A stretch of 60,430 nucleotides of DNA, filler included, from Sphacelaria rigidula (taxonomy: Eukaryota): the NCBI GenBank assembly GCA_964200075.2. It is 8 parts of 8 records of this genome, joined end to end, with 100 filler letters (N's around TTAATTAATTAA, not from the genome) between each part and the next. Parts side by side here need not be neighbours in the genome. Positions count along the whole stretch, not along the records: positions 1 to 7,467 come from CAXNAA020014799.1; 7 more parts are not named here. One strand, written 5' to 3'. The notes under the pieces were generated by a model. That model did not search any database. It had not been told where the DNA came from and saw only the letters and a program-made list of their open reading frames with translations. The position numbers and the translations under genes are program-made. Positions 1 to 45,398 of this stretch are shown here, piece by piece. How positions within the stretch are numbered: position 1 is the stretch's first letter; each line of letters opens with the position of its first letter.

Positions 1-60
1 GGGTTTTCGCCGGACCAGGCTTGCACTCAAACCACCAAGCGCGAAGCGCCGTGGTGTGTT
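1..60 (+). repeat. Fragment of the ~570-bp dispersed repeat fused to the protease codons
   Basis: Aligns with ~13423-13482 and ~30326-30385 (ccggaccaggct...aagcgcgaagcg..gtggtgtgt). Confidence 0.85.
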
Positions 61-2755
61 GGACACCGGGGCGGGGGGGGGTAGCTATGCATCAAAGCAG
101 TGGTGGAAGTCTTTGGTGATTTGGGGGAACATATCGGGCAAACTACAACGGCAAGGGGCAGGATTCCTGAGGGCAGCAAACCCTAGTGACAGCAGGATGC
201 CGCCGATGAAGATTTTGGGGTCAGCGGTAATTCTGATTCGGTTCCATCCAAATGATAGAATAAGGAAGGTATGGGTTAGGGTGGTCGATGGATTGCCGTA
301 CGGGTTCATATTGGGGGCAAGTTTCTTTAGAAGGAACAAGAGCACACTGTCTTTTGAGGGTCAGTCGGGGTTCCGACCATCACCGGAGGCCCCGTGGGTG
401 AGATTCGTGTCTAATGGCTCACCAAAACTCGGAGCCGTTAACGACGATCGCCTCACTGGACAGGGAGACTCGGCAGGGTGGGATCTCTTTTGTGCTGTCA
501 AGCCGAGAGCGCTCAGCGATGACCCGACGGGGGTGTTGTCGAGAGAGAGCGACCTGGCAGAATAGGATGAGGTATGGAAGAGCCTTGGAGCGGCGTGGGA
601 GGACGACGCTACACTTCAGTGACATCTAAGGCTGACGGAGGACGCACGATTGGAAGGCTTCGTTGGCAAGCTAGTCCCAGGCTACGTGCGAGGTCCTCAA
701 CCGCAGGAACGCCAACTCGTGTTGATCGAACCTCGAAAGTTGTTCGATTTAGATGAGGAAGCTGAGATAGGGGTAGCTAGGGGAGTGCAGCGATGGGATC
801 CACAGCTACCGTTGGTATGTAAGGTGGTCAACACGGCCAAGAATGCTCGCCTAGTGAAGAAGGGTATTATAGTGGCGGAAGTTGTGGCCGTGAATGTCCG
901 AGATCGCGAGCGGTCGCAGAATCTGTACGTGTCCGACTCGGGCACCACGCTCAAGTCGAAGCTGGAGGATCGAGGGACTGCGCCATCCCCTCCCCAACCG
1001 TCGCCGGAACCGCAGGAAGGGGAAGAAGAGGACACAACGGAAGCCACAGGAGTAGATCTCACGGAAGCGAACATGGGTCAGTTGGGTCGGGCGCAGAAGA
1101 CACAGCTGTTGTCCATCTTAGGAGACTTCAACGAAACAGGACTTTTTGCGGTGGACCCCAAGAAGGTGAAAGCCGCGCGTGGGGAACCGTTACGTCTACG
1201 AATGAAACATCCCCGCTGCAAGCCATTCGCTGCCGGTACCAGACGGTACTCACCAGAACAGGAAACAGCTATACAAGACGAAGTTCAGAAACTCGCCGAG
1301 CGGGGGGTCATTGAGCCGTCGACGTCCGCATGGGCAGCCGCTTGCGTCACGGTGCGGAAGAAGGACGGTGGTTTACGGTTGTGTCAGGATTATCGTGGAC
1401 TAAACGAACTCCTCGAGTCGTATAGCGGTGGTTTGGGGGATATGCAGACCATGTATAATGGCCTGGCGGGATCCAAGTACGTTACGAGTGTGGATTTAGC
1501 GAGCGGATTTTCCCAGTTGGACGTGGCGAAGGAGGACCGACACCTCACCGCCTTTCGCGACGCGCGGGGGCACTTATGGCAATATCAGCGTTGTGGATTC
1601 GGACTCAAGGTTTTACCCGCGACATTTCACCGAACAGTATCCGAAGCGTTGTTGCCAGCGCGGGGTGTCAAGAATTGCTTGGATGATATCTTGTGGCCTA
1701 GCGCAACTTTCGCCGGCCACACGACGGGGTTGAGGGTTGTGCTCTATTGCTTGCTGAAGGCAGGCCTCACTGTGAATTTCCAGAAATCACAGTGGTGTAC
1801 CCAGTAACAGGACTTCGTGGGGATGACGATCGATGCGTCGGGAATACGATCTTCTCAGTCTAAGATCGAGGCGATCGCTCAGTTGAGGGAGCCGCAGAGG
1901 GTAGAAGAGCTAAGGTCGTTCTTAGATATGACCAGATATCTGCGGAGGTACATAAAAGGGTGCAGCAATATGGCGGCACCACTCACAGACTTGCTGAGGG
2001 ACCCACGATTCGCCTGCAAGCGAGCCCGGAGGATGGAGATCCCGTGGGGGGACGAACAGCAACAGGCATACCTCGACTTGAACAGCGCTCTGATGTCGTA
2101 TCCGATCTTAGTGTACCTGGATTGGAATTAACAATTCGTGGTACACTCAGACGCTTCAGAGTTCGCAGCAGGGGCCGCCCTGGCCCAAGAGGCAGATGAG
2201 AGGGAGTGGATCATCGAATACGCTAGCCATAGATGGTCTCGAGCGGATGAAGAAAGATCAGCATCAGAGAGGGAAGTAGTCACTGTTCTGTGGTCCGTAG
2301 AGCGATTCAGATCATATCTATGGGGGCGAGAGTTTACGCTAGTCACGGATTGCAGTGCGTTGACATGGTTGTTTCGTAGTCAAAACTTGTCGCCTGAGTT
2401 CCACCGGTGGGCGCTGAGATTGATGGAGTATGATATGGTCCTCAAGTGGCGAGCTGGACGCGAACACCAGTTGCCAGACGCTCTGTCTAGGCTGCAAGGG
2501 AGCCAGCCCAGGGGAAGTGACATTGACGTGTCATTCCCTGACGATGATACCGAAGCGGGACCAGGCGGAGGGGGAGGACCACAAGGACCCAAACTGGATG
2601 GGATGTTGCTGAAGGAACTGGAGGCTGAGTACCTGGAAGAATCCGCAGACCTAATGGCATTGGCGTTGGAGGAAGCCAACGCGTGGTATCCACCGGAAAC
2701 GGGTGAAGGAGTTATCATTGACTCCGAAGACCATATGACCGGACCGGTTAAGCAA

Positions 2756-3650
2756 CGACCTCCTGCGTTGATTGTCCATTGTGGAGGCGGGGGCAACATC
2801 CTGGCCGCGGAGAAGTTTTTGGAGGTAGTAGCAGCCACCGATGCAGATTGGAAAGCGTTGGATTGTGTTAGGGTGAACCAGATTGGAAAGGGAGTCAGGT
2901 TGGTACGTACGACTCCGGGGCGCCCTTCTTTCCACAACTCGATGGAGGAGGCACAACCAGAAGTGTTGGTAGGAGATACGAGTAGGGTTCCCCCCGTTGA
3001 TAAAGGTGCGGGGGAGTCGGAATCCGTAGAAGGTGCCCGAGAATTGATCGAGTCGTTCCTCTCCTTAGAGTCAGCGACAACTCTGATCTTGGAGAGTACA
3101 GATGTAAAGGTGCATTCTCCAGGCTGGGAGAAGAGCGTGACTCCGCTGCTGAGCAGAGCCGGCTGCTGAGTCGAGCAGGCATCCGTCTCCGCCCTGCAAG
3201 GGGGCGCTCCGTATCGGAAGAAACGAACCTATGTGGTCGCTCTGAAGGCAGATCAGCAAGGAGGAAAACCACTGCGCGCGTGGAAACAACGGGTGAAAGC
3301 ATACGCTGTTATCTGCCCCCCGCTGGGTCAGCTATTGGGGTGGACTGGAACCTATTTCTTGGAGCCGACAGAGCAAGGCAAGGCTATTCACCGTTTCGAG
3401 GATCCGTTGCCTAGGTTAACTCGTCCTCGGCTGACGAGAGGGAAACCGCGGCGCGAGGAATTCACACCCCACAAGGCGGATGCAGGGGTATGGGAGGAAG
3501 CGGTAGAGTTAGAAAGAGTCGATTTTGTGAAAGTCGCGACCACCCTCGACTATTACGAGACCCCACCCACGGTAAACCCCGATACGATGCCAGATATTGT
3601 AGCTGATTTCGCTCATCCGTGGATGATGGGGGCGGTTTTATCGAGCTTGG
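2756..3650 (+). other. C5 cytosine DNA methyltransferase-like domain inside pol (catalytic motifs degenerate)
   Basis: Motifs in canonical order: I ALIVHCGGGG; II VVAATDADWKALDCVRVN; IV PEVLVGD (no PC); VI TLILES (no ENV); VII-VIII LLSRAGC*VEQASVSALQGGAPYRKKRTYVVAL; EDPLPRLT; IX-X LERVDFVKV...IVADFAHPWMMGAVL. Recognised by eye; no HMM was run. Confidence 0.75.
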
Positions 3651-5253
3651 AAGTGGAAGGGTTGTTGAGTTTGACTCAGAGTCGGAGCGAGGACGTGGGC
3701 CTATTTGCGCTCGCAGCGATGTGGCCCCATGAGGATGAGTCGCCAGAAACATGGGGAGCCGCAGTAACTCGCTCGTCGGTTCCCGCGGCAGAACATAAGT
3801 CGGACCAAGACTATGGTGGGGGGAGGCTTCAGCTGAGGAGCTGATATCAGGTACAGGTAACCCTAGAACCGTCCTCGAACAGGCGAAGGCAATCTTGATG
3901 GACAACACGCAACTCGCTTTATTACAAGGACGGTACTCCCGCCTTGGACCCATCAAGGATCGGTTGAAGGGAAGGCCTAAGGACGAAGGAGTTGGTAAGA
4001 AGCGGAATGCGTACGTGCTAGATGAGAATAATCTGTTATGGTACACTTCCCTTAAAGAGCCAGCCAAATTAGCTATCCCACGCAGTATAGTGCCAGGCCT
4101 GCTTGCGTGGGTACACACTATGCACGGGCATGCTGGGGTTATGAGGACGACTGCGGTAGTCAACGCACGGTATGAATGGCCTGGTCTTTGTGCCGATACC
4201 CGCAAATACGTGTTGTCGTGTGAATGTCGCCGGCGCAAGCGTACCAACAGTCACACCTTAGCGTTGCGACCCGCACGATTCCTGCGTGCATGGGAAGTGT
4301 TAGAGATGGATATATCAGACATGAAGCAAGTTTCCGCCTCAGGTAACTGGTACTTGCTGATCATCGTGAATCGAGCAACCAAGTTTCTCTTTGCTACTCC
4401 ACTGGCTGCCAAGCTCACGGTGCCCGTCGCGAAATGTCTGTTGAAGCTTTTCTTGACGTTCGGGGTACCCTATTTTCTAAAAAGTGACACTGGGGGGGAA
4501 TTCACGTCGGAGGTAGTGAACCATTCATGCCGGTGGATGAAGGTGAAGCTGGATCATGGTCCGGCAGAGCACCCTTGCGGTCAAGGCGCGGTGGAAAGGT
4601 ACGGTGGATGGTTGCACGACGTTTTAGCCGAACTCTGTAAGCAATGGCCGGAAAGGTGGGATGAGTATGTAGGCCCCGCTGTGTGGATTCACCGTACTAC
4701 TCCCGATCCAGCATTGCCTAATAGCCCGACTCCATTTAAGCTGCTTTTTGGGCGCGAGCCACGCACCCAATTAGACACGGTGTCACCCGAGGCGGAATGT
4801 CCACCGTTGAATAACACGGTGGAACAACAACGCCAGAACTTGAAGGAATTTCACGAGCTGTTGACCCAACACCACAAGAAAAGGGAGGAAGTACGGTTGG
4901 CTCGAAACGCCGAGTTAGCCCGCCAGTCAGCAGGGTCGCGAGCTCAGGTAGGGGATCTAGTGTTGGTAAAAGAGTCCGACAGCTCCCTCGTACACGAAAA
5001 TGTGCCAGCTAAACTAGTGCACGACTTGTGGACGGGGCCATGGGAGATAAAGCAAGTGGTGATACCCGGTCTCAGCCTTAAGGTCAGTATGTAAGGGCGT
5101 AAGGTACGGGAACGGACGGTCTCGGCAGCCAATGTGAAGAAATTTCATGTGCGCCCTGAACAGCTGCGGCATCCGTTTCCGGACGAATATTCTCAGTTAG
5201 CGTGGGGGGCTGATTTGGGGTTAGCTGAGGAGATCACGACCGTTCCGCAACTG

Positions 5254-5664
5254 TACACATTGACAGATAGGAAAGTGGTGTTAAAATCAGGATCGTCCTG
5301 GGAGTGGGCCTATCGAGGGTTATTTCATGACGGAACCGAGTCTCACTGGCTTTCAGAGGAGGAAGTTTTGGACAGTTTCACTGGGCTACAGTTGGACGTT
5401 TTTCATGCTTTGAGGGAACTATATAACCCGCAAACCAAACTACGCCCATCCGTTAACCCATCTCGAGCGGAAAGAGACTCTTTTGCTCGGGATGAAGCTT
5501 TACGACTCATTTCTCGAGGGACCAGAATACGTAAACAGTTTGTGGACAACCAAGGTGAGCGGCAGGAGTTCAACGGGGAAGTGTTCGACTTCCGTCAGCC
5601 GTATTACCGTATCAAGTATGAGGATGGGGATTGGGAAGAGATGACGCCGTCGGAGGTGCGCAAA
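5254..5664 (+). other. Integrase C-terminal chromodomain-like (~5254-5403) and Tudor-like (~5518-5664) modules
   Basis: YTLTDRKVV...WEWAYRGLFHDGTESHWLSEEEV resembles a chromo fold. GTRIRKQF...FNGEVFDF..PYYRIKYEDGDWEEMT matches the G-x-x-V-x-K-x-F...Y-x-V-x-Y-E-D-G-D-x-E-E Tudor-like pattern. Confidence 0.65.
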
Positions 5665-5720
5665 AATGCGGTGAAGGAACAGGGTACCAGAGCCGCTTCA
5701 GGATCTAATTAATGGGGAAA

Positions 5721-5874
5721 AGGGATCGTTCTGCACGGTGTTCAAATTCCCTACATGGTCTAACCCGGCAGAGCGGTCAACAAGATCAAGGACTCCTCCG
5801 GACTGGAAGGGATCGTCCTGCACGGTGTTTAAATTCCCTACGTGGTCTAACCCGGCAGAACGATTATCAAGATC
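5721..5874 (+). repeat. Two-copy direct repeat (~66 bp, period 88) in retroelement 3' UTR
   Basis: gggatcgt(t/c)ctgcacggtgtt(c/t)aaattccctac(a/g)tggtctaacccggcaga at 5721 and 5809. Confidence 0.85.
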
Positions 5875-7467: not shown

Positions 7468-7567
7468 NNNNNNNNNNNNNNNNNNNNNNNNNNNNNNNNN
7501 NNNNNNNNNNNTTAATTAATTAANNNNNNNNNNNNNNNNNNNNNNNNNNNNNNNNNNNNNNNNNNNN
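7468..7567. other. Artificial scaffold spacer (also 15035-15134, 22601-22700, 30167-30266, 37733-37832, 45299-45398, 52865-52964)
   Basis: 100-nt N blocks with central TTAATTAATTAA (stops in six frames), separating sequence blocks of 7467, 7467, then 7466 nt. Confidence 0.98.

Positions 7568-8906: not shown

Positions 8907-8977
<71 letters not shown>
8907..8977. repeat. (TAT)n microsatellite
   Basis: Perfect ATT/TAT run; source of the poly-Ile ORFs. Confidence 0.97.
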
Positions 8978-11760: not shown

Positions 11761-12331
11761 TTCAGCCTGGTCCGGCGAGAACCCGGCGTGCTCCGTCCCG
11801 GCTTTGCAGGGGCGGACCCCCGATCGGGTTGGCGTCGGTTGGCGATGACGCTATTAAACACGTCACTCCCTACGTAAGCTAGGCAACCAGGTTAACGCTT
11901 TTGTTTTTTGCGCGCTTGCGTTTTTGTTTTGCGGTAACCATGATGGTAGTCGACCTAAATCATGTTGTGCCGCGTGGGAGAACCTCAACTCCGCACAATG
12001 GGGATGATTGTACTACGTAGTGTTTACATGGTGAGACACCCATGAGGCAGTGTATAAGCCGTGGCTGTCTCTGGGAGTGGTGATACCAGAGAATGAAGCA
12101 ACTCATTTGAGGCTATCATCCGAATGCAAGATAGTCGGTAGGCTTTAGGTCGAACAATCGTAGCAGGATGCAGCTCACCCTTCATGCGGCTCGCCGAACA
12201 CACCACGGCGCTTGGCGCTTCGTGATTGCGTGAGAGCCCGTTCCGGCGAAAACCCGGCGTGCTCCACCCCGCCTTTGTAGGGATGCGAGGCCAACGGTCA
12301 TATGACTACGGCATGCATGATTATGAGTACA
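11761..12331 (-). mobile_element. ~570-bp dispersed non-coding repeat with internal ~50-bp direct repeat, next to a C-run
   Basis: Reverse complement of 13345-13915; motif agcc(t/c)g(g/t)tccggcga(g/a)aacccggcgtgctcc at ~11764 and ~12235. Confidence 0.85.
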
Positions 12332-13344: not shown

Positions 13345-13915
13345 GGGTGAACTCATCATCTTGTATGCCATAATCATATGACCATTGACCTCGCATTCCT
13401 ACGAAGCCGGGATGGAGCACACCGGGTCTTCGCCGGATCAGGCTCGCAATCAATCGCCAGGCGCGAAGCGCTGTGATGTGTTCGGCGAGTCGCATGAATG
13501 GTGAGCTGCATACGGCTGAAATTGTGCCCCCGAAGCGTACTGTTTATCTTGCGTACGGATGACAGCCTACAATGGGATGCTTCATTTTCTAGTATCGCCA
13601 CTTCCAGAGACAGCCATGGCTTGCACACTGCCTCACGGATGTCTCACCATATAGCTACTACGCGGCGTGACCATCCCCTCCCTTTGCGCGGAGTTGAGGT
13701 TTTCCCACCCCGCACAAAATGATCTAGCTCGAACACCATCATGGTTAACGCAAGAAAACGCAAGCGCGCAAAACAAAACGGCAACCTTGTTGCCTAGCTT
13801 ACGCAGTGAGTGGTGTATCCTACAGTGCCATTGCCAACCGGCGCCAACCTCGTAGGGGGTCCATCCCTACAAAGCCGGGACGGAGCACGCCGGGTTCTCG
13901 CTGGACCAGGTTGAA
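13345..13915 (+). mobile_element. Second full copy of the ~570-bp repeat (fragments also at 15135-15205, 30267-30550, ~37988-38035, 52833-52864)
   Basis: Preceded by a G-run; direct-repeat segment at ~13395-13446 and ~13864-13914. Confidence 0.85.
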
Positions 13916-15256
13916 TACCGGAAAGTACCGGAAATTTCAGGGGGAGAGACATGGGCTAATTTGATGTTTCAAGACCCACGAGAGAGGAGATGAATAAGTG
14001 GAACCAAATGGTTTTTCGTTCAGTAGTGAGAAAATTTCACTGCGTATAGCGTCGACAAGTGCGTCTGTTGCAACAGACAAAATATATCATGATGTACGCA
14101 ATACATTTTTTGGCAGTGCAAGCAGGATGTGATTTGATTCAGCAAACTTGAGTGCACAGTGTTCCGAGAGTAAGAAATAGTAAAATACGTTATATAACAT
14201 TGATATCTTCGCAAGCGAGGAACTCATATCTCAACGTATTTTTGCATCACTAGCCAAAGATTTTCCCCACCGGGGAGCAGTTTTTTTTTCTTTCCTTCCC
14301 GAATCATGGAAGGCCCACGCCACAAGCGATGGCTCACCCTTCAACATGAGTAGAATAAAAAAATGAACAATGTAGCGGAGGAAACATAATGGGAGATTCG
14401 ATTTCAAGTTGGTTCACCCTTGGGCCACTGCCCATGCGTAACACAAATCTTGTTGACAACTGCACAGGCACCGCAGGTGAGGTACATACGCGGCACCGGT
14501 ATTTGGGACATCTCATTCCCTACCGATACTGGTCCAATCGGGTATTTTCAAATGTCATGCCCACGTTACCCACGGGGCCATGGTAATTCGATATTTAAAT
14601 GCCCACCTTACCCGTTCGATCGGGTTTTTTCAAATGCCATACCTACGATACTTACGCATACCACGGTATGGGATATCCCGGTGAATACCGGGGGTATACC
14701 CGGTCAATACCGGACGCGATCCACTCCCCATAGTGCAGCAGCTGGTCCCAACTTACGCAAAGGCCAGAAGTTGTCGGAGGAGGTACATGTTGTTCTCACA
14801 AGTAATATTCACCCAGACTCCCCCTGATTTTTGTGTTCGGATCAATTCGAATGAACTCATTATTATGTAGTCTAAAGTGCGGTCGATTTTTTCTCGATCC
14901 AAGGGCGCTTGAAAAAACAAATCCTGGATCCACACTCACTTTTTTCCATTTGGGGCCGATTTGGGGGGGGGGGTATTCATTTGTTGCTTGCCTTAGTCAG
15001 TTGACCATTGACCACGCATCCCTTTCGAGACGGANNNNNNNNNNNNNNNNNNNNNNNNNNNNNNNNNNNNNNNNNNNNTTAATTAATTAANNNNNNNNNN
15101 NNNNNNNNNNNNNNNNNNNNNNNNNNNNNNNNNNATTGTAGGGATGCGAGGTCAATGGTCTGATGAATATGGCATGCATGATCATGAGTACACCCGCCCC
15201 CCCCCTTTTCCCTATTCCTTATGTTGGCGTGAATCACGTGCTCATTGCATCCACAG

Positions 15257-21497: not shown

Positions 21498-23089
21498 TCG
21501 CAATATGTGTGTGGGGCAAAAAGGAAAAGAACTCGGTCAATTTTCGACAATGATATTTGCATCAAGTCAGGTCTCACTCTGTTTATCCTGGTGAGGGAAC
21601 ATGTTGCGAAATCTTGCCCGAAAGAAGCACTGGTTGACGTACCGCACGTACACTATATAGGGATCGTGATTCCCACTCATGAGGCAACACAGAGGCAGCA
21701 CAGAGGCCGCAGGCGAGGGCTGATTGCTTGTGCTCAATGTCTCCCGTGTTCCGAGCACCGTTATATGCTTATTTCTCCCCGCACGAACGAAGTTACTATG
21801 GCTACCCCGTTGAATTCACGCCTGAGGCCCATTTTTATCGAACAAATATTTTTTCGAGAAATCCTGAATTTTTCGAGAGCTCCAAACGGCCGATTATCAT
21901 CGAGTTTTGCCGTCGCTTTTAGATCTCTCACTACGGACACGGTGCTGCTCTCGTCATTGGCTCGCCTTCGCCGCCCTCAGTATACCGCTCCCGCCAACCA
22001 GCAGTGCTTTTTACTCTTCGACATGGCCCAGGGTGTTACTGGCAAGGTACCTCATGACTCTCGAGCGCTTACGAGCGCCGTGCACAGTATACACACATGG
22101 CGGCAGCTCTCCGAAGTGCTGCGTTGCAGTCCGAATTTTTCGTGCTTCTCCAAAATGAAGCGTTGGAGGAAAAATGAAGCCGCTTTATTTCGAAGAAGTC
22201 CGAAAGGCAATATACAAAAAAGTGTACGCTGTAGTGCTTTTGGAACAGAAAAGGGCAACGCATTTTTCGGATTTGGGCGCGGCGCTGCACGCGGGCTGAA
22301 CACCTCGAAAACATGTTCCAGCCCCTCAGCCCCACCGAGCACAAGGTGTCTGGGCAGCATGTCCGACCACTTCTTTCTAATTCACACGTGGCACTAGGCC
22401 TGAGTGCGGCGCGGATAAGGACAGTCTGTGAAAGTACCCATTTTGTAAACAAACCAGGAGGGTACACCCTGCACTCTGCTAAAAATTCATCTCAAGCAAT
22501 GCTACGGTAGGAGCACACAAATATTTTCTGAGGTTAGAATTGTTAGGAGCCCTTTATCTCATCCAAAACGCGACTTATGAAAATATGCGAGAGTACGCCA
22601 NNNNNNNNNNNNNNNNNNNNNNNNNNNNNNNNNNNNNNNNNNNNTTAATTAATTAANNNNNNNNNNNNNNNNNNNNNNNNNNNNNNNNNNNNNNNNNNNN
22701 TGTGCGTTTCGTCGTCTCATCACTGCCATGTGCTTACAGGTACACGTTGATATCCTACTCAGGGGTATTGAGGGCCTCAGTGGCAAGCTACTGCAGTGAG
22801 AATATTGTTCTGGTGGAGGTGCATTTCGGAACTGGAACGGCTTATTATTCTCTAATTGACCACTTTTCACTCTCAATCGTACCTTCAGCTCTCAATTTCA
22901 CGAAAATGTTGTCAAGAGTGAAACAGCGATTAATAATGGTAGAATTTTATGGTTCAAAGGGCCCAAGGTCTGACACGCCAATACATCAAATAAATACTCA
23001 CGATATATTGCATGTCACCCTGTATACGTCAACTCCAGCGAAAGGAGCTGACGTCATCGTATAGAGGGATAAAAATCCATTGGGTAAGC

Positions 23090-26558: not shown

Positions 26559-29500
26559 TCACAACTTAATACCAAACTCACTCGTAACGCGAGCAGCAAC
26601 GGCACGAGTCATGCGCAATTTACCCAACTCCTGTGAAAGAAATTCCGGAGTGGCCCTAAACATATCCTTGTAAGGCTCCCACGTACGCTCCTCAACTTTG
26701 AAACCGACCCAGTCGACCAACACGATCAACTTACGATCACGTGCTTCTGCCACTCGTACAATACCAGCCATCTGAAATTGCCCCTGATTTAAAGCATACC
26801 GGAACACGTCCTCAACGTCAGCCGTAACATTAAGCTGCGAGTCTGCATAAAAACGCGAACGAGCTACAGGGGCAGTCTGAACTCGACCCGAAACAATGTT
26901 TGGAATCTCAAACATGTGCGGGTGGTGAGCACCAACCACTCTCCATGGACCAGTCCACGTCGCCATCAACTTGGGCGTAACACCCGGATGACGAACGCGT
27001 GCATACAAGACATAGTCGCCTACCTCAACATTTGGCAGTTGCAGCCCCGACGAGGACCCCTCACATCTAGGCGCACGTTCAGCGCAACACGTTCCTGCAC
27101 TTGAACGTGCAAACGTTCTTGCACGTCCAAGACTACTTGAGTGCACGCTTAATTTGATCATCGACTAATGCCGAGATAGCCCCCCCACAAAAAGTGCACC
27201 GCCGCCGTCCAACAAACCGGCTGCGATCCTGCCATTGGGCTCGTTTTCAGCGATTGCGCCCACATGAGAGGCGTGTAACAGTCCGAAATCAGCTGAAACG
27301 CCCAAATAAGTCGCGTCGTGCAGCGCGAGTCCAGCTCTAACGGATTTTATCACCATCGCCCCCGTGCACCTTTTTAGCCGGTTCGGGGGTGGGGGCTATC
27401 TCGGCAGCAGTCCATCGTCCAAAACATCACATTTCTATTCCCCCGCCGACGAAGACGCCAGCACCGAGAAAGACGTCCGAGGAGCACGACCGAACATCAC
27501 GTGGTACGGCGTACTATCGAAACGACGACGATACGCTTTATTGAGCGCCCATTTCACCGCCGGCAACACATCCACCCACTCGGAAACAGCTGTATGCTGC
27601 TCGAGAAGAATAGAGCGAAGAACACGAACTCCTTCCTTGACCATGCGTTCGCACGTACCATTAGACCACGGAGAATACGCCACCGCAAACTGGTGATCAA
27701 TGTGCAAAGCCTCTTGCAATCGGGCCAAGGTCGTATTCTTGCAATGCGTGGTGATATCACTCACCCACACACGCGGCAACCCCAAAGTTTTGCACCAATT
27801 TAGCAAAGATGCAGCAGTCGATTCAACAGTACACACTGCTACTGGCTCCAGAGATACGAAGTTGCTCAAATCATCCATGATTACCAGAATTTATCGAAAC
27901 CAAGCATCCTCCGACAAGCCTTGGGAAGCTAGCGGGCCATTCTCGCCTACGTACAAGAAATCAAAATGAACGACTTCATTCGGCATGGTATCGTGGACCG
28001 TTTCGCCGAGCCGGCGGGGAACAGCATCACCCGCCCTCGAGTCAGCACAGTGAAGACACTGGCGGAAAAAATCGCACACATGAGTTATTATCCCCTGCCA
28101 GACACAAACCTCTTGCAAGCGCACGAGCGTTGCATCCACACCACGATGCCCGGCGTCGCGCATGTGCGCGCAAATAGTCAGGCGTACCTGCAACTGCTTG
28201 TCATAACTCGGAATCCACAAAAGATTTCGGCCACGCACATGCACACGAAATATACCTTCATTGTTCAAGTTAGCAGTACCAACATCCGACTCGAAAGATT
28301 GCACATCCATATCTTCGCCCACAAGGTCTTTCCATTGCGCTTGGCGGACAATAGATTTGGACGGCATCGAGTCATCAGGCTCACACGGACCATCCACAAT
28401 CACAGCGCGCACAGGCATTTTCATTTCAACTGTAGGCACCTGCATGACCAAACTACCCCAACGGCACTCAGACGCATCCGGAAATATAAACAACTGACAA
28501 TCAGGACGAGGATGGAACAGCGTCACGGCATGAGCCACCATATCCTTCGCTGCCGACCGCACCTGCCGCCTGCCTTCAGTCCACGATGCAGCCTTCTTCA
28601 AAAACGCCATATCTGGACTTGACCACCCCGCCTGCAAATTTCGTAACACCAACCCGAGCGCCAAAAGAGCCGCCATGCACAACGCCAACCAACTCGATTT
28701 CACTGGATCCTACCACCGCGGCTTCGTCTTCGCCGCGGACGCCCCAGATTTTAGCTGAACACGCATGGGCTCCACGCGCGTAGGAGGATCACCCCGCAGC
28801 GGACGACGAAACGCATTGACGCGGCAATGCCATATGCCGCGCAGGCGCTCCAATTTTGAGACGCTGAGGCCTGTCGCCCCAGCATCCGTCATGTTCTCCT
28901 CCAGCGCGACCTTCCGAGCAGACGCCACTTCCGCCGGAATCATCAACATATCAGGGCTGCGCTCTATCAAGCGTTCCACCGCCGCATCCCGCTCCTCGGT
29001 CACCTACCCTCCAGCCTCCAAAAAAGCATCCACCGACAAACTCACGCGAAGACTGCCGAAAAAGACGGGCGTCTGCAAGCGTGGACCACGCGGAGACATC
29101 CGCGTCTTCATGGAGTCCTACAACCGCCGAACGTCGACTCCAAGATCCTAAGGCGTCGGCAACCCCAGAAGAATGACGCCATCTGACCCCGGCATAATCG
29201 CAAATGAGATCGGAGGCAACTGCGCCAGCCCTCAGGAAGTCGTGAAAGTCAGCTGCAGCGGAACAGTACGCTCTGTGACGTAAACATGCTGACCCGACGC
29301 GGTGACGGCTTGCCGCACCCCGAGCAATAACGGCTTGCGCAGCGGCACACCTGGGAGGAGACGCTCCAATATCGCCACAATCTGTACCGACAGACTTACA
29401 TGACACGTCAAGTGGGCGCCAGAATCCCACTAGCCCGAACCGCGATGGCTCCACGCTACCGTTGATATGGAAGACACAGCTCGGCAGGAACATATTTGTG

Positions 29501-30091
29501 CACAGACACATTCGCTGACCGATGCACCACTAATGCCAATTGAAGCCAGGGCCGCGCAAGCTGCGCAAGCTGCGCAAGCTGCGCAAGCTGCGCAAGCTGC
29601 GCAGGCGAAGACACCCCGGTAGGTTCAAACGGCACCGCCAGCGGGTATGACCCCCAGCCAGCAGACCAAGAATTTGGCGAACCTCCAATCAGCGCATCAA
29701 CACAGGCGTTGCGCCTGGCGCTGCTGTCGGTGTCGCCATCGGCGCAACCATACCCAGAACCAAGCCCATGCTGACGCCGCTGCCCCCGCTGCTGCTGCTG
29801 CTGCTGAGGACTAGGCTGTGAGCCTCCATCGCCGGAGGATCCGCCACCACCACCACCACCCCGATTACCTCGTCGTTTGCCCTTATGCTGGCGATGCTGA
29901 TGACGCGCGGCATGAGGCTGCCCAGATTCTTCACCGGAAGGCGTTGGGTAATCGCGCGCGTAATGGTCGACCTGGCCACAACAGTGACAAGTGCCCTCCG
30001 CATGCCCAGCATGCTTTTTGATCGCCGCAACCAATTGCGGCGGGGTAGTTGTTGTAATGCGTGAGAGGACCGCGTGCTTAGAGGACCGCAC
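26559..30091 (-). mobile_element. Decayed chromodomain-bearing Ty3/Gypsy element lacking RT and most of RNase H
   Basis: Gag knuckle CHCCGQVDHYARDY; frameshifted protease (DSGA ~29420, FAIMPGSDGVILLG); RH start FPDAS; integrase AH..AGHRG..CLHC, VHFDFL, WVSD, SNGTCERM; WTGPW; chromodomain VLVDWVGFKVEERTWEP. Confidence 0.9.
29553..29602. repeat. 9-bp tandem repeat (gcgcaagct)x5 within gag
   Basis: Encodes AQL repeats on the minus strand. Confidence 0.9.
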
Positions 30092-30112
30092 CGGAATTTG
30101 AAAACCCCTATG

Positions 30113-30146
30113 GTTAGGGGTAGGGTTAGGGTTAGTGTTGGGGTTA
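30113..30146 (+). repeat. Degenerate TTAGGG telomere-like tract
   Basis: ggttaggggtagggttagggttagtgttggggtta close to the scaffold end. Confidence 0.7.
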
Positions 30147-30866
30147 TGATCAGGGGGGGGGTGCCTNNNNNNNNNNNNNNNNNNNNNNNNNNNNNNNNNN
30201 NNNNNNNNNNTTAATTAATTAANNNNNNNNNNNNNNNNNNNNNNNNNNNNNNNNNNNNNNNNNNNNGTGCCATTGTCATATGACCACTGACCTCGCATCC
30301 CTACAAAGCCGGGGCGGAACGCGCCGGGTTTTCACCGGACCAGGCTCGCACTCAATCACCAAGCGCGAAGCGTCGTGGTGTGTACGGCTCGTCGCATGCA
30401 GGGTGAGCTGCATACTGCCAAGATTGTTCGACCCGAAGCCTACTGATTATCTTGCACTTGGATCACAGCCTTCAATGAGTTGCTTCATTTTGTGGTATCG
30501 CCACTTCCAGAGACAGCTACGGCTTATGCACTGTCTCATGGGTGTCTCACCGAGGGGGGGAGGGGGGGCTATAACAGTCAGTATGACGAAACTAAAGCAA
30601 AGCAGACAACTGTCACACGTGACAAAGTATACCGTTCGTACGGAGGTGAATGGTTCGGGGGGAGTCCGAAATATTCTCAAGGTCGGACGTTATTCTGAGG
30701 TGGCATAAAGCGTTTTCCGTCACAGTACCCTGGGGTATCGTTATGATGCTAAAGTAACCAACAAGGCCATCACTGGGGAGTTCATTCCAGGGAGGGGGTG
30801 GTACTAGCCTACGAGCGTCCCACCGTATCACGCACAGTTGTCACGATGGCTACGACGTTTCAGTAC

Positions 30867-33422
30867 CTTCCTCTCGGGCTGCAAGTAGTAGTAGTAGTAG
30901 CTCAGGTAGTGCGACACGGGCTCGCGGAACACGGTGACGAGGTTCACGGTGGAGGAATCTTTCATGATAGCTTTGTAGGCCGCTTCAGCCTGTTCCCAGG
31001 TGCCTTTGTAATATCCGTCCCACGCGTAGTGGTAGTGCATAATGTCCACCCGCTTCCCGAGTTGCCGCATCTGATTGTAATGTTGACGACGACGAGGACG
31101 ATAGCGGCGATGATGTTGATTACAATGACGGCGATCGTGACGATGATGGTGATGGTGATGATGGTTGGTGACAAAGAATGAGAAAATAGGAATGGGAAGG
31201 GAGGACGGGACCATACACGAGCAAAAGCCAAGGGCTGAGTCATCGCATGCAAGGGGGGGGGGGGGGGCAGAGGGAAACATGGCCAAGCTAGCGAATGGTC
31301 GCTAGATTCCGAAATATATCTCAGGCCCGTTACTGTAAAAAATGGCATCGCCGCGCCCCCGTGAGTGCAACGGTGAAGTTGATCCCACTGGGTCGTTGGA
31401 AACGCGGACGTGATTCTCATGTCTAGTTTGGCTTTTCTCCAAGGTGTCACTAATCCCCGACGATGAGGGCATGAGGGCATGAGGGCGTCAGCAGCAAAAA
31501 GAATGTGACTGAGCCTGTTAGGCGACAGCCGAAGCAGTGCGAGAGAGCTGATCAAATCCGCGGTACCAAACTGTGAGGTGCGTAACGGGGGAGGGGTGGG
31601 TCGATCTCGTGAGACCACGGACTCGTCCCGAAAGAGGTCAGAACTTAGAAGTGAGATCAAAGACTCAGACGTTTTATGAACACCCCTCCCGCCCATCGTG
31701 GGACGGTTGGATTTCACCAAGATGTCAACATCAGCAACGTCTACGAGGGTTTTTATAACGAAAACAACAGTAAGGGTTTAACGTAAGATCCAAAGTCAAT
31801 GGCAGCAGAAAAGCGACCGGGAGGAACCAAGATGCCACAAGATCCATATCGACAACGACACGAGGTTTTTCATAATATCACCCAACATTACGTGAACTAA
31901 CCAAAAATGCCCTGCATGGTTGAAATCAACGTCCTGACCAAGCTTTCGAAAAAACACAACGGGAAGAGTTACTCGAATGGCATGTATACTAGAAAAAAAA
32001 AAAAAAACGACCTAACAGACGAGGGGGGGAAGGGAGAAAAGAAAACAAAAAAAAAAAAAAAATACCGGCCCCCCCCGCCGGACCCAGCGTGNNNNNNNNN
32101 NAACAAAAATAAAAAAAAAAAAAAAAAGAAAAAATTATAAAAAAAGAAAAAAAAAAAAAAAAAAAAAAAAAAACGACTTAACAGTCGACGAGGGAAAGGG
32201 AGTGCTGAAGCCCTCTCGCGATGAAAAATAACGGCAAGCACCGCAGAAAGAAGGTGGGGGTACTGAAAACAAATAAAATATGAAAAAAACTCCTGTGCTG
32301 ACCCTCCTGTGTGACCCAGGCTGGTGCGCTCACATATATCGAAACGTGTAGACCGGCGTCCAGAATAGATGGGACGGCAACACACACTAATGTGCAAGGG
32401 TTCAAGTTACGCTCAAATATATATATATATATATATATATATGTTACACACCCCACAGATCAAGAAAATACGGCACGATACAGCCTGCACGAGCGTCAGA
32501 AGCTAGCATGATTTGGTGAGTTTCAACACGTTACTTCCATATTTGAACGTACAAAGCAAGAGCACGACACATATCCGCTGGCATATATTTTCCACGTGTA
32601 TTCCGAGTACCCGCACGAAGCAAACGCTGACCTCCGACTAGTCAAAATAGTCTTGAGGTACACATCGAAAAACGCGAGTGCGACGACATGCAAACACCTC
32701 ACCTGACACGCATGCAGAATGTACACAAACTAGAATTTTTTCAGAACCATCGTTCTGGGTCGGTCAGTTTCAATGTTGGCAAGCACTAAATGTGACGTGT
32801 CTCACGAGAACAGTTGGGCATGAGCGATTTCATTGTAAGTCACGGGTACGACCGACCACGCAGGCGGTAAACCATCAAAAATTGAAGATTTGAATGGCCA
32901 ACATTGCAAATACTGATGGTTACAAGGCTAGCGGACGAATCTAGTACGAGTCAATCAAGTGCTCAAGTTACTTCTTTCCCGTCCTTTTACACTAGGTTAC
33001 ATAGTAGTAGTAGCAGTAGTAGTAGTAGCAGTAGCAGCAGCAGTAGTAGTAGTAGTAGTTTTAGTAGTACTAGTAGGCAGCCACGGCTACTATGCCACTG
33101 GGAAGTCATGTCACCGTAAAAGGGGTTGGTGTGCTGTGCGACATCTCATCATAACATTTTATATTTATGGTCTGGAAAGGACTTGGAAAATTACGCAGAA
33201 ACTGTTCCAAAAGGGATCGTTTCGCACGACAATTTGTTAATATATATATATATATTATATTCTGGTACATACCCGTCCCGCGGCCTCCGGTAGGGTAATG
33301 ACCGAGTGGCGGTTCTCGAAATGAGCCACGTCGACGCCATGTCGTTTTCCATACCGGTACAGGATCGTCGCCATTGTTGTCGACGCCGTCTTGTGGGTCT
33401 TGACGAAGGCGATGTTGCACGT
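30867..33422 (-). CDS. Galactose-3-O-sulfotransferase (Gal3ST)-family sulfotransferase, two internal exons (33273-33422, 30867-31070)
   Basis: CNIAFVKTHKTASTTMATILYRYG (5'-PSB) and LVTVFREPVSHYLSYYYY (3'-PB); both exons are phase 0 with cag/gt boundaries. Confidence 0.85.
32172..32388 (+). mobile_element. 3' body of tRNA-derived SINE
   Basis: Reverse-complement similarity to ~42262-42450 and ~48120-48320; ends in cacacac. Confidence 0.65.
33002..33072. repeat. (AGT/AGC)n microsatellite
   Basis: Direct reading of tagtagtag/cagcag run. Confidence 0.9.
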
Positions 33423-37500: not shown

Positions 37501-40500
37501 CGGAATGAAAGAAGCACAACGAGCAGCTGGAAATTCCCACGCTTTGGTTCGTGTTCGTCAATGTCGCCCATTTGAGGCGCTTCATGCAGCCTGAAACTAA
37601 ACATCAGGCGCTGTATGACCATGTCTGTTCGTGACAGTTTTGGGCTGGTTTGGGAGACGGGGGGGGGGTGCTCATTTGTTGCTTGCCTTAGTCGTGTGAC
37701 CATTGATCACGCATCCCTTTCGAGACGGAGTTNNNNNNNNNNNNNNNNNNNNNNNNNNNNNNNNNNNNNNNNNNNNTTAATTAATTAANNNNNNNNNNNN
37801 NNNNNNNNNNNNNNNNNNNNNNNNNNNNNNNNACACAGTGTGCGATTTGGTAAGGAGGGGCCAAGCAACTGACAAAGGAACAGGTCAAGAAAAAAAGAGA
37901 AACGCCCCCCCCCCCCCCCCAAAGCTGGCATGAACAATTCACGATCTCGAATGCTTTGGACACACCACGATCCCGGGCGGCGTCGAGGGGGGGTGTACTC
38001 ATGATCATGCACGCCATAGTCATAAAACCATTGGCGTCGAGGAGGGGGAGAGAAAGCAACCATGATGCTGATGCTTTGGACATTTACTCTAGATTCATAG
38101 TATGCACATAAGATAAAAGCACAGGACAGATGACATGAGAAAGGGATGAGTAAAAACGCCATAAATCCGGTCAGACAATACTTGAAGGTTCCTGGCGATA
38201 ATATTACTATGGTTTAAGCCGGTAACTGAATGTTATCAGTCCTTATTTCTCAAACATGTTACCCACCCACCTGGTTAAAGATGCCGTGCGTATGTTTTCC
38301 CTGCTTCGCGCCCCCCACGCCAACTCCGGCTCCAGCCGCACCGTTCACCAAGTTAAAGCGTATTATATTGGCATCGCCGCGAACGGTCATGCCTACGAAT
38401 CCACGATCACAAGTTTGTCACTTACGAAACACAACAAGCATTCAAGCTACAAAGACGTTAAAAAAAGCTGACTTTGTACAAATTTATGTTTTGAACAATC
38501 GCCCGAATGACATCCTTATGGGCTTATAAGCGAAAATCACATAATTAGGGACAAGGTAGAAAAGTAATGAAAGTCTAGGAAGATATACTAAAATATAGGA
38601 TGACGTCATTAGTAATTTCAAAAAAGTAAGGATGTAAATGAAAGTCGGAGTCATAGTTGCACTCGTACTGCAGCACTGCAACCCAAATTACTTCGTCTGA
38701 GTATATATCGTGTGGTGCTTCGGCAAGGATCAAGGATCTATCCAGATCTGCTCCGAACACCCGAGCTTCGAAGCTCTCTGATGCCAACAAACACTTTCGC
38801 AGTGTTACCTTCTGCCTCATGATATGTATAGTCGCAGATTCAGAGTCCGACTTTCAAAGACCGCGGGGACGTTAATATCTGTGTAGAAAATGTTTACAGT
38901 CGAATCTCACACACGCATACTGAGTGGCATGTGTGGTATAAGAAGATAGAGGGACATCCAACAAATTTGACGACCATTTAGGTAAAATTATTTGCATGAT
39001 TGATAGATGCATTCATGAAGGAAAATATAATCATAGGTTCGTAAAGTGTTTGGTGGTTGGTTGGTTGTTAGAAACTTAGTTGTTTGCTTCTTTTTGTGGG
39101 GAGGCGCGGACAAAGTGACTGTTGCAAGCCACACCGATGGATTCCCCCCATTGTCTGCTTTCTTTTCTTAGGAGGCTTCGTGTATATTAGATTCAGAGAA
39201 AGGACTGTGTTACAGCTATAGAAATTCTCTCAGTCAGTACTATACGTACGACTTAGCCGTATCCGCTGAAATTCTGGCCGCACGACAATGACAACTATTC
39301 AATTTGTTGGCATGAAACTGCTGACTACGGAACGAACCATGGTTATGAAAGAAATTTGTGTTGAGCAGATAGGACCGAATCGAATCACTCCTCGTTGTCG
39401 GCTGTTGCATCTCCATGAATCGAAACTGAAGAGACATGGTAACTACAGATTACATAGTCCAGAGAAGGGAAAAATTAGAAAAAAATGTTACGCATTGAAG
39501 AGAGGAAGGACCGCCAAATGAAAAAAACAAAATCACCTTTCCTTCGCTTCCTTCCCACCCCCCTTCCTCGGTGCATGGTTTCGAGAAATGAGCTCATCTC
39601 TTCCCGGGTACACACCTTGCATTTCGGCCTCGCACGTTGGATCATGATCAGCACTCCTACACCGCGCCGACTCTCGTCAAACAAACTCAGCCAAATAAAC
39701 TCCATCTGTATTTCACACCCTCATACTTTCAACAACAGGAATCGGATACTTCTGAGAGAAAGTCAAACTAGCCGCATCTGGCGGTCATTCGACCCACGTT
39801 ATTCCCGCCCTAATGTTGTAAGTTGCGACGGTACAGCACCGGGGTACGGCAGCTTCTACTGTATATTTCCCCTGTCTCATAAGTTAGGGTACCTATGGAC
39901 AATACTTTGTCTGGTTACAACCGTGTTAGTGAGGATAGTATAGTCGGGTTCGTTGAAAGGATAAAATGAAGGCAAAGCTAGAGAAACAAGGGAAAAAAAC
40001 GGGGTTCTATTCCTTCACCTAAAATGGGTTCAAATATACCCTATTTTGGCTTATTTCGAGAATGTTCTTCGAGATCTATTTTTTAATTCTCGAAACAATC
40101 ATAAAATCGTCCAACTTTAGTACCCTACCTGCCCACTACACCATTCGAGCGATGGACTCGCCCCCCCAGCACATCCCCGCCTCGCAAACGGGGCGCCGCG
40201 ATATCGGTTGGTGGCTGCTACGCAATGGCGACAATGGTTTTCGACACATTCTTTTCCGTGGCAAAGGCGTGAAATACGGCCATTTTGGGACCAACTGATT
40301 TTTTTCGGCCGTTCGGCCACATGGTTCGAGCACCGACTGAATAAAATAAAATAAACTACTCGAAAAACGCCGAGGATTTCACACATCGGACAGATCGTGA
40401 TCTATCTGAAACAACCAATGAAAGAAGACACTCGAGTGTGTGGGTCCAAAAACACAAAATATGTGACCGCAGTCAGGAAAGCCAAGACGCAACCTTTGCG

Positions 40501-44263: not shown

Positions 44264-45133
44264 CAGTATAGTGGCAACTCCCGAACACACAATCTACATA
44301 GGTAGGCCACCATACCTAGACTAGAGTCGGACGGAACGTACTTCGTCTGGGTCCCATCTCGTCTTTATACGGGGATACAAAATGCCATGTAGGTTCGCCC
44401 GCTGTATGTAAAAAAGCAATGTTTCACTCACAAGTTTTGAAAAATAGTGTTCCAGGAGGTCTCGTCGACCTCCCCTCCAATGCTCTCCATGCGACGAGTG
44501 AGGCTCGTGCCCAGGTCTATACCGGAACCGCACCCAATCATACCCTTGCATACGTCCTGCGCGTCAATTAGGGGTTTGTCGATGTTATTCGTTGGTTGGT
44601 TGGTATTGGTTGGTTGGTTGATTGGTTGATTGGTTCGTTGATTGACTGGGGTAGTCAGTTGATCACAGCGTATCAACTGGTCAGCGACGGGATAAGCCGC
44701 GGTCCCAAGATAGGCGTTGGTTGATATGTTGATTAGTTGATTGGCTCATCGATTGACGCACACTAAGTGATTCCCGGGGGATCCGGCCGTTGCCATCGCC
44801 CACAAGTTAGGCGTACCCCAAGAGGAATATACGAATATACTCGATGAAAAAAAGTCAAGGAAAGGGGAAATATGATGATCAAATGTGAAAACAAGCAAAA
44901 GGAGACGTGATGGAATTTGCGTAACGACAGTGACTAGCTTTTTCGACAATCGTGATTGCAGCTGTTTGGCACCGTAGGAGCAATATGTGTAAAGGTTACG
45001 CTTGAGTCGACTCAAGGCACACCCCAAAAAATAACACCACCATAGATAAATGTGTGTGTGTACTATGTACCTACCGTCATTACTGGCTGCATACACGAAG
45101 ATCGCAAGTATACACTTACATATGCATGCATGC

Positions 45134-45298
45134 ATACATACATACATACATACATACATACATACATACATACATACATACATACATACATACCATACCA
45201 TACCATACCATACCATACCATACCATACCATACCATACCATACCATACCATACCATACCATACCATACCATACCATACCATACCATACCATACCATAC
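45134..45298. repeat. Compound microsatellite (CATA)n-(TACCA)n running into the scaffold end
   Basis: Direct reading. Confidence 0.97.
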
Positions 45299-45398
45299 NN
45301 NNNNNNNNNNNNNNNNNNNNNNNNNNNNNNNNNNNNNNNNNNTTAATTAATTAANNNNNNNNNNNNNNNNNNNNNNNNNNNNNNNNNNNNNNNNNNNN

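Follow-up and report, generated by a model that had tools for sequence, protein, structure and literature searches.

What use could a retrotransposon have for a cytosine methylase fold that appears to have lost its catalytic nucleophile? The question is raised by a 60,430-nucleotide stretch of DNA from Sphacelaria rigidula (GenBank assembly GCA_964200075.2), analysed here as a whole and called the window, whose bases 1 to about 5712 hold the pol region of a Ty3/Gypsy retrotransposon with its 5′ end truncated by the window start. Within this pol, a preliminary description made from the sequence had recognised a methyltransferase-like domain and interpreted it as a pseudo-enzyme, proposing that catalysis was lost in the active lineage rather than by decay of this copy. 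Our reading, to which we assign a probability of roughly 0.58, is that the element carries a diverged C5-cytosine-methyltransferase fold in a Tudor-bearing Ty3/Gypsy pol, that the nucleophile was lost across the whole clade to which the window copy belongs, and that the domain has been kept as a non-catalytic module.

The pol region is encoded in two frames (Table 1). Frame one spans 2-3844 and contains a protease-like part with its DTG motif, RVT_1 and RT_RNaseH, and frame two contains Integrase_H2C2, rve, and a C-terminal Tudor domain of the PTM/DIR17-like type; the Pfam matches thus run RVT_1, RT_RNaseH, Integrase_H2C2, rve, PTM_DIR17_Tudor, giving the order protease, reverse transcriptase (RT), RNase H, integrase, Tudor. 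The letters for the protease DTG, RT LDD, and integrase HHCC and DDE motifs are all present. The copy is a dead element, with six in-frame stops—five before 3844 (at 563, 620, 1805, 2129, and 3167) and one at 5092—and a single frame change between about 3799 and 3844, in keeping with the earlier statement that RT, RNase H, and integrase carry scattered lesions only. About 550 codons, not found in ordinary Gypsy elements, separate the end of RNase H (~2431) from the start of the integrase zinc finger (~4075). The methylase fold is positioned here, in the same frame as RT and RNase H, and four related polyproteins (P0144 to P0147) show the identical arrangement.

That this region is methylase-like, as first described, was undetectable by sequence and was confirmed by comparison of folds. 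PF00145, the Pfam family of C5-methylases, gave no match to the window copy even at E ≤ 1, and searches of PDB sequences with the protein (phmmer) and with the family profile (hmmsearch) returned chance rows only, with E above 0.3. Among nine relatives, PF00145 produced two sub-threshold matches over motifs VI-VIII (14.5 and 10.8 bits, cut-off 22), the relatives concerned being P0012 (E 0.024) and P0144 (E 0.31). When the untrimmed family alignment was compared with Dcm by hhalign, only 11 columns were aligned, in the RT part (E 0.41); the trimmed family profile gave a collinear path over 318 columns of Escherichia coli Dcm, but a non-significant one (E 0.2).

The structural evidence is of a different order. 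We built an AlphaFold2 model on the window copy's own translation, with X at the in-frame TGA and a 142-row alignment; it reached a mean predicted local distance difference test score (pLDDT) of 81.4 and a predicted template modelling score of 0.77, and its secondary-structure elements follow the order of a class I methylase lobe, after which comes a second lobe. In a Foldseek search of the PDB, the best 50 matches listed were all C5-cytosine methylases (E 4.8e-10 to 1.2e-07, probability 1.00). VIA-align gave Z scores of 20.7 for a Dcm-like protein (3lx6), 20.5 for Schizosaccharomyces pombe Dnmt2, 20.2 for M.HaeIII, and 20.1 for M.HhaI; over a Z range of 20.7-17.8, 252-284 residues were aligned, so that model residues 15-325 span whole enzymes, including the catalytic domain of DNMT1. 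The best match in the BFVD library of viral structures was a phage cytosine methylase (E 1.3e-15, template modelling score 0.62), and an ESM Atlas feature search with the domain of P0144, which did not draw on our alignment, returned PF00145 clusters, bacterial and phage, as 29 of its 30 matches (best score 0.93, 184 of 256 features). Methylase identity is settled because the fold comparison, with Z near 20, lies far above chance where the sequence searches detected nothing, and 2753-3685 is accordingly modelled as a complete, highly diverged C5-cytosine-methyltransferase fold. The top structural rows include bacterial or phage types, Dnmt2, and DNMT1 at tied Z, and sequence gives no placement in a subfamily; DNMT3 structures were not among the best 50 matches listed in either PDB structure search. 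A chance likeness of motifs in a region not derived from a methylase, which would account for the missing PF00145 match at E ≤ 1, the missing PDB sequence match, and the hhalign values of 0.2 and 0.41, is scarcely credible given Z near 20 against many C5-methylases along their whole length, the fact that every top row from both structure libraries is a C5-methylase, the 29 of 30 PF00145 clusters, and seven motifs that are all collinear.

These motifs—I, II, IV, VI, VIII, IX, and X—follow the C5-methylase order in the family alignment, in the DSSP order, and along the hhalign path, which pairs family and Dcm as LGCGAGG/LFAGIGG, GDACRRY/GFPCQPF, LECP/LENV, PTRKQRVF/PQHRERIV, and EEFT/GNSV. At motif IV the window copy was said to depart from GxPCQ, and it does: 2960-2995 encodes EVLVGDTSRVPP, with a motif IV core of GDTSRV and no Pro-Cys, and zero Cys occurs from residue 84 to 151 of the domain translation. 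Motif VI had been given as LES instead of ENV; Asn and Val are replaced as reported, but the reading was one residue out of register. LES is found at two places (3065-3073 and 3089-3097), and family alignment, DSSP strands, and hhalign path to Dcm agree in identifying E128-S129-T130 (3092-3100) as the ENV equivalent, in which the Glu is kept (EST). The loop for S-adenosylmethionine (SAM) and motif VIII had both been placed in 2954..3245 and called kept; motif VIII, which reads Tyr-Arg-Lys-Lys-Arg in the window, does lie there, together with the in-frame TGA at 3167-3169, and the SAM loop is real but lies upstream, at 2768-2797. As an observation, the preliminary description is therefore partly confirmed. 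In the family at large, the first Arg of motif VIII is mostly Lys (45/62), the second Arg is retained (46/59), and Gln is replaced by Thr, Ser, or Tyr.

Relatives were recovered with a full HMMER search of 1.84 billion representative proteins (141 proteins at E ≤ 0.001), while word-indexed protein searches, whether queried with the window domain or the read-through pol, yielded none, and a metagenome scan with the window protein confirmed 0 of 89 pattern matches. A second search, with the intact domain of P0005 as query, yielded 12 polyproteins of 914-2024 amino acids (aa). Two long repeat proteins (P0063 and P0077), in which nine stretches matched residues 15-45 only, were judged spurious and excluded before all counts; the 150 proteins retained were aligned to the family hidden Markov model as 156 rows. 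All named relatives come from brown algae of the Ectocarpales: Cladosiphon okamuranus, Nemacystus decipiens, and Ectocarpus sp. CCAP 1310/34. With P0147 the window element aligns collinearly (1287 aa at 35% and 607 aa at 46%), and the Ectocarpus sp. polyprotein P0144 is a further match. Contigs from four public runs show an old, multicopy family, with 144-328 pieces per run at ≥80% identity, most of them below 90%.

With these rows we could ask whether the unusual motifs belong to the copy, the clade, or the family. Intact Pro-Cys and ENV, whose presence in the family would by the preliminary description's own test have refuted it, occur in 0 of the 71 rows covering motif IV and 0 of the 70 covering motif VI, respectively, and no row has a PC dipeptide nearby. 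The nucleophile column reads C in 36 rows, S in 17, Y, R, and E in four each, F and V in two each, and T and G in one each; the column before it is A in 43 and T in 12, and never P. The Glu column of motif VI holds E in 59 rows and Q in seven, followed by C (37), S (20), or N (1). Cys is thus retained, as Ala-Cys(-Arg), in 36/71 rows, including 10 of the 11 proteins of at least 900 aa, and it is retained together with Glu; with half of its rows in this state, the family as a whole cannot, on its alignment, be called a pseudo-enzyme.

A FastTree phylogeny with midpoint root, built from the 36 of 156 rows with coverage of 85% or more over 106 core columns, splits three groups: a Cys-bearing group (group A) with the long brown-algal polyproteins, a 'TS/ES' clade without Cys, and the window's clade. 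In the last, Cys is found in 0 of the 8 rows covering motif IV (Ser 6, Thr 1, Arg 1), and Glu in 6 of the 6 covering motif VI; the residue after Glu is C, C, S, F, G, or D, versus Cys in all group A rows listed. Members of the window's clade are now only 44-63% identical, and they keep the Gly-rich SAM loop, the motif II acid, the motif VI Glu, and the basic residues of motif VIII. Since Cys is absent from all eight clade representatives, the loss is one of the lineage and not of a single decaying copy, and the tree places it in the ancestor of the window's clade. The position next to Glu was released to vary after Cys was lost, a relaxation confined to the active centre, and with two separate Cys-less clades the family has lost Cys at least twice.

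The idea that the odd motifs merely record the mutational decay of one dead copy is in this light very improbable. It can draw on the six stops and the frame change and on the many positions at which the window copy differs from nearly all other copies among public-run contig pieces (40 of 437 differing places viewed), but it leaves unexplained a Cys-less state common to 8/8 clade representatives, the family-wide counts of 0/71 and 0/70, and a lesion density within the domain (1 in 311 codons) not above that of the rest of pol. The original interpretation is, on balance, partly supported: as to a pseudo-enzyme, the nucleophile is lost in the window's clade, with the fold retained and conservation site-specific, but Glu is kept and 36/71 family rows keep Cys.

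We also considered a strict coupling between the motif IV Cys and the Cys following the motif VI Glu (C-C in 23, S-S in 8, and C-S in 4 of 55 rows) and rejected it, as the two Cys-less clades lost these residues in different orders. Six proteins (P0006, P0022, P0024, P0050, P0120, and P0142) keep the motif IV Cys and have Gln in place of the motif VI Glu (Gln in 7/70 rows), which would be a different route to an altered active centre. Two further Cys are strongly conserved in the family, one belonging to motif I (35/44) and the other to the LEC helix (59/66), at window codons 2780-2782 and 2864-2866; together, the four conserved Cys around the cofactor pocket (motif I, LEC helix, motif IV, and next to the motif VI Glu) might form a disulfide or bind a metal.

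In C5-methylases the Cys thiol attacks C6, and because of this chemistry a Cys-less domain should be unable to methylate C5. Cys-to-Ser mutants of these enzymes are inactive yet still bind DNA, and Ser is no substitute for the Cys nucleophile. Without a thiol in the catalytic loop, no covalent C6 adduct would form and the Cys-less domain would be inert for C5 methylation; we propose, as the simplest reading, that it nevertheless stays under selection in pol as a non-catalytic module, which would still bind SAM and/or nucleic acid, perhaps a flipped base, and which may cooperate with the C-terminal Tudor domain in handling of complementary DNA (cDNA) or in target choice. The domain of the window's clade is probably a binding module that has ceased to be an enzyme, while Cys-bearing clades, exemplified by the Ectocarpus polyprotein, may remain enzymes of unusual chemistry or substrate.

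The conjectural roles named in the preliminary description are DNA binding, target-site tethering, or a decoy, with DNMT3L as a putative analogue. Two precedents offer partial analogies. DNMT3L and plant DRM3 are catalytically inactive paralogues of DNA methyltransferases (DNMTs) that kept the C5-methylase fold after loss of catalytic residues, much as the window's clade appears to keep the fold without a nucleophile. Both are host genes that partner an active DNMT, and DNMT3L is not known to bind SAM; the window domain differs in being transposon-borne and in having a SAM loop that looks retained, and we know of no active DNMT partner in brown algae. M.HaeIII C71S, bound to DNA in PDB 3ubt, resembles the window domain in having the identical substitution at the identical position in a protein that remains DNA-bound, but it is a laboratory mutant of an otherwise canonical enzyme, whereas the window substitution arose in nature and comes with numerous further alterations to the motifs.

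A working methyltransferase in the window's clade, with non-canonical chemistry or another substrate (RNA, RNA:DNA hybrid, or cDNA) and with Ser or another residue substituting for Cys, is an alternative that we regard as distinctly improbable. It gains from the conservation of the SAM loop, motif II acid, motif VI Glu, and motif VIII basic residues in the Cys-less clade, and from the fact that the whole family departs from Pro-Cys and ENV yet persists in long open polyproteins. It fits poorly with the complete lack of Cys in the catalytic loop of the window copy, with the biochemistry of Ser given above, and with the apparent freedom of the residue beside Glu after Cys loss, which is what loss of a catalytic centre predicts.

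To gauge whether the inferred non-catalytic module is still constrained, we used mean pairwise identity per column within clades as a substitute for the ratio of nonsynonymous to synonymous substitution rates (dN/dS). Over 331 columns, the site-wise conservation of the 23 window-clade sequences is correlated with that of the 18 sequences from the Cys-bearing group (Spearman rho 0.277, p 3e-07); the second Cys-less clade gives a rho of 0.156 (p 0.016) over 236 columns. Such values point to site-specific constraint after the loss, because neutral decay would give no such correlation, and it is this site-rate correlation that suggests selection on the Cys-less domain. Invariant within the window clade are the Gly of motif I, the Asp and Trp of motif II, and the Glu of motif VI.

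Several observations weigh against retention of a functional module. The rate correlation is modest, and variable columns that align worse in both clades could inflate rho. The methylase fold is the least conserved pol domain: identity to P0147 is 35% and 32% there, versus 46% for RT, 49% for RNase H, 58% for the integrase core, and 43% for Tudor. That the domain carries a single lesion is no proof of its use, because the frame must stay open for translation of the integrase. Among the 35 Cys-less rows the median length is 166 aa and a single protein reaches 900 aa, against 10 among the 36 rows with Cys. The retained relatives include no intact Cys-less polyprotein from the window's clade; Cys-less lineages may have died out, or they may at no time have been autonomous. 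Of the preliminary claim that catalysis was lost in the active lineage and not by decay of the copy, the second part is borne out by the 8/8 clade rows, while from the sequences we only infer that the lineage was active. As to ligands, motif I has no aromatic residue and motif X no Gly-Asn, so that SAM binding cannot be taken for granted; for DNA binding by a Cys-to-Ser mutant, the title of PDB 3ubt is the sole support here.

Some of these points are what one would expect if the domain were functionless in the window's clade, a leftover spacer whose frame is open only for translation of the integrase and Tudor domains. The low identity (32-35% vs 46-58%) is in line with a spacer, as is the near-exclusive occurrence of Cys-less members as short, broken open reading frames (ORFs), and there is no RNA dataset among the listed public runs holding the family. 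On the other side, conservation within the window's clade mirrors that of the Cys-bearing clade, the four motif residues named above are invariant, and about 310 residues have been retained, not deleted, in two independent Cys-less clades. RNase H can, moreover, directly abut integrase: in a second Gypsy fragment of the window (26.5-30.2 kb), RNase H and the integrase zinc finger lie only ~80 residues apart in one ORF. We consider a mere spacer unlikely and favour a retained, non-catalytic module.

Capture of methylases by retrotransposons is not in itself new. The available parts of PMC5890265 describe SymbioLINE-Dnmt and SymbioDIRS-Dnmt3 from Symbiodinium and KnitGypsy-Dnmt3 from Klebsormidium nitens, with key catalytic residues kept in all three families, and in a later survey DNMT3 is also recorded from Copia and DIRS elements (PMC12344493, likewise in its available parts); as far as these accounts go, the known retrotransposon-borne DNMTs are all canonical PF00145 domains with conserved catalytic residues. 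KnitGypsy-Dnmt3 resembles the present case in that a C5-methylase domain sits inside a Ty3/Gypsy pol polyprotein, but it is described as a recognisable PF00145 Dnmt3 with conserved key residues and a Ka/Ks ratio (nonsynonymous to synonymous substitution rate) below 0.2, in a host rich in 5-methylcytosine (5mC) (PMC5890265). The window domain, by contrast, is invisible to Pfam and belongs to a family without Pro-Cys and ENV throughout, whose named hosts are brown algae. The SymbioDIRS and SymbioLINE elements, also retrotransposon-borne cytosine methylases, illustrate that such captures recur; they differ in being of the DIRS and LINE classes, in their conserved catalytic positions, and in having de novo CG methylation demonstrated (PMC5890265), and none of these features holds for the window element.

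The closest description by architecture is that of Gypsy-10_Ec32 of Ectocarpus, a Tudor-bearing Gypsy lineage that was recently highlighted as the first transposon to have a Tudor domain and that has a homologue in a yellow-green alga, according to the portion of PMC12477816 available. Its pol likewise ends in Tudor, a likeness drawn from that description and not against the Gypsy-10_Ec32 sequence itself. Tudor is the domain described there, and the text and supplementary files of PMC12477816, as far as available, link no methyltransferase to the Gypsy-10_Ec32 family, so the methylase fold adds to the description; the literature searched contained no description of a methylase domain of this Tudor-Gypsy family. 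P0144, the polyprotein from Ectocarpus, aligns collinearly with the window element and likewise contains the extra methylase domain; unlike the Cys-bearing brown-algal members, the window copy falls in a diverged Cys-less clade.

The host context gives these findings some weight. In the parts of the sources available, Ectocarpus 'notably lacks cytosine methylation' (PMC12477816), its 5-methyldeoxycytidine is quoted as under 0.035% (PMC6916402), and Saccharina japonica has ~1.4% methylated cytosines with only DNMT2 found by a PF00145-based search (PMC6916402). Because the domain is so diverged, PF00145-based surveys miss the Tudor-Gypsy methylase family, and 'no DNMT' inventories of brown algae are blind to it. 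Retrotransposon capture of canonical, active cytosine methylases was known before from dinoflagellates and a charophyte; new here is a cryptic methylase fold, not assignable to Dnmt3, in a Tudor-Gypsy lineage, that is, in another element lineage and host group, with host algae that those sources report as without cytosine methylation (Ectocarpus) or DNMT2-only (Saccharina). The family offers a natural series, from non-canonical members with Cys and Glu to nucleophile-less clades with the fold, for asking what use a methylase fold is to a retrotransposon after methylation stops. A more far-reaching version, which we put forward tentatively and judge rather unlikely in its entirety, holds that ochrophyte Tudor-Gypsy elements carry a Pfam-invisible C5-methylase branch (Ala-Cys-Arg/Glu-Cys-Pro) whose Cys-bearing members, found in long open polyproteins of Ectocarpus, Cladosiphon, and Nemacystus, may be real methyltransferases acting on their own cDNA, RNA, or hybrid, while at least two clades would have independently become non-catalytic base-flipping or SAM-sensing readers that aid Tudor in integration targeting. 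If so, an overlooked source of cytosine methylation would exist in organisms scored as DNMT2-only, for example behind the low non-CG 5mC of Saccharina.

Table 1. Positions in the window of the retrotransposon domains and of the motifs of its methylase fold, with the family motif and its Dcm counterpart
Feature	Coordinates	Strand	Evidence or remark	Family motif	Dcm motif
Protease-like N-terminal pol part (VLDTGAG), cut by window start, ending at TAG 563-565	2..565	+	49-51% identity to N-terminal parts of P0147 and P0146		
Reverse transcriptase core, Pfam RVT_1	1352..1798	+	E 1e-12; 46% identity to P0147		
Ty3/Gypsy-type RNase H (RT_RNaseH, RT_RNaseH_2), in-frame TAA 2129-2131	2045..2431	+	E 7.6e-26		
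Acidic, Gly-rich linker from RNase H to methylase fold	2432..2752	+	Low pLDDT at model residues 1-5		
Predicted complete C5-cytosine-methyltransferase fold: catalytic lobe, target-recognition lobe, motifs IX and X	2753..3685	+	Model residues 15-325		
Motif I, SAM loop LIVHCGGGGN (= LFAGIGG of Dcm)	2768..2797	+	Gly columns G in 40/45, 43/47, and 46/52 family rows	LGCGAGG	LFAGIGG
Motif II/III, ATDADW...RVN: acid ending strand 2, conserved Asn 12 residues on	2834..2878	+	D 51 and E 9 of 66; W 61/66; N 66/70	acid, 12 residues, Asn	equal spacing
Motif IV, PEVLVGDTSRV	2957..2989	+	Ser91 (AGT, 2981-2983) at catalytic Cys position, Thr90 at Pro position	G-[DN]-A-C-R-R-[YF]	G-F-P-C-Q-P-F
Motif VI, LILEST	3083..3100	+	Glu 3092-3094 kept; Asn-Val replaced by Ser-Thr	L-E-C-P	L-E-N-V
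In-frame TGA within methylase fold, sole lesion in 311-codon domain	3167..3169	+	Translation		
Motif VIII hairpin, GAPYRKKRTYVVAL	3203..3244	+	Canonical Q.R.R reads Y.K.R	P-T-x-K-x-R-V-F	P-Q-x-R-x-R-I-V
Motif IX-like (VDFVKVATTLDYYETPPTV) and motif X-like (IVADFAHPWMM)	3518..3628	+	Canonical GN.V of motif X absent	IX: DFVKLTT..F.IP; X: E-E-F-T	X: G-N-S-V
Integrase zinc-binding H2C2 and catalytic core rve, other frame	4075..4575	+	E 1.9e-10 and 2.9e-06; 58% identity to P0147		
C-terminal Tudor domain (PTM/DIR17-like)	5518..5661	+	E 1.7e-08; also in P0005, P0144, P0145, and P0147		

The remainder of the window yielded minor observations. No Rfam family was found in the window. N runs, paired and 44 bases long, recur about every 7566 bases (7468-7567, 15035-15134, 22601-22700, 30167-30266, 37733-37832, 45299-45398, and 52865-52964) and have the look of masking or scaffolding, not of biology; an extra 10-base N run lies at 32092-32101. 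A 15-base tandem array at about 45100-45342, reading MVWYG repeatedly on the minus strand, adjoins an N run, and a (TTA)24 microsatellite occupies 8907-8977. The second Gypsy-type fragment, unrelated to the first and on the minus strand at 26559-30214, is without the methylase insert and seemingly missing RT; it contains a Cys-His gag-like ORF, RT_RNaseH_2, Integrase_H2C2, the rve core, and a C-terminal chromodomain (E 0.0014). Window bases 1-60, the protease-like start, recur three times at 83-92% identity (30326-30383, 12197-12255 on the minus strand, and 13424-13482), perhaps as relics of related elements. Directly past the stop of the Tudor ORF, a 68-base direct repeat (5720-5787 and 5807-5874, 90% identical) perhaps belongs to the 3′ untranslated region or a long terminal repeat.

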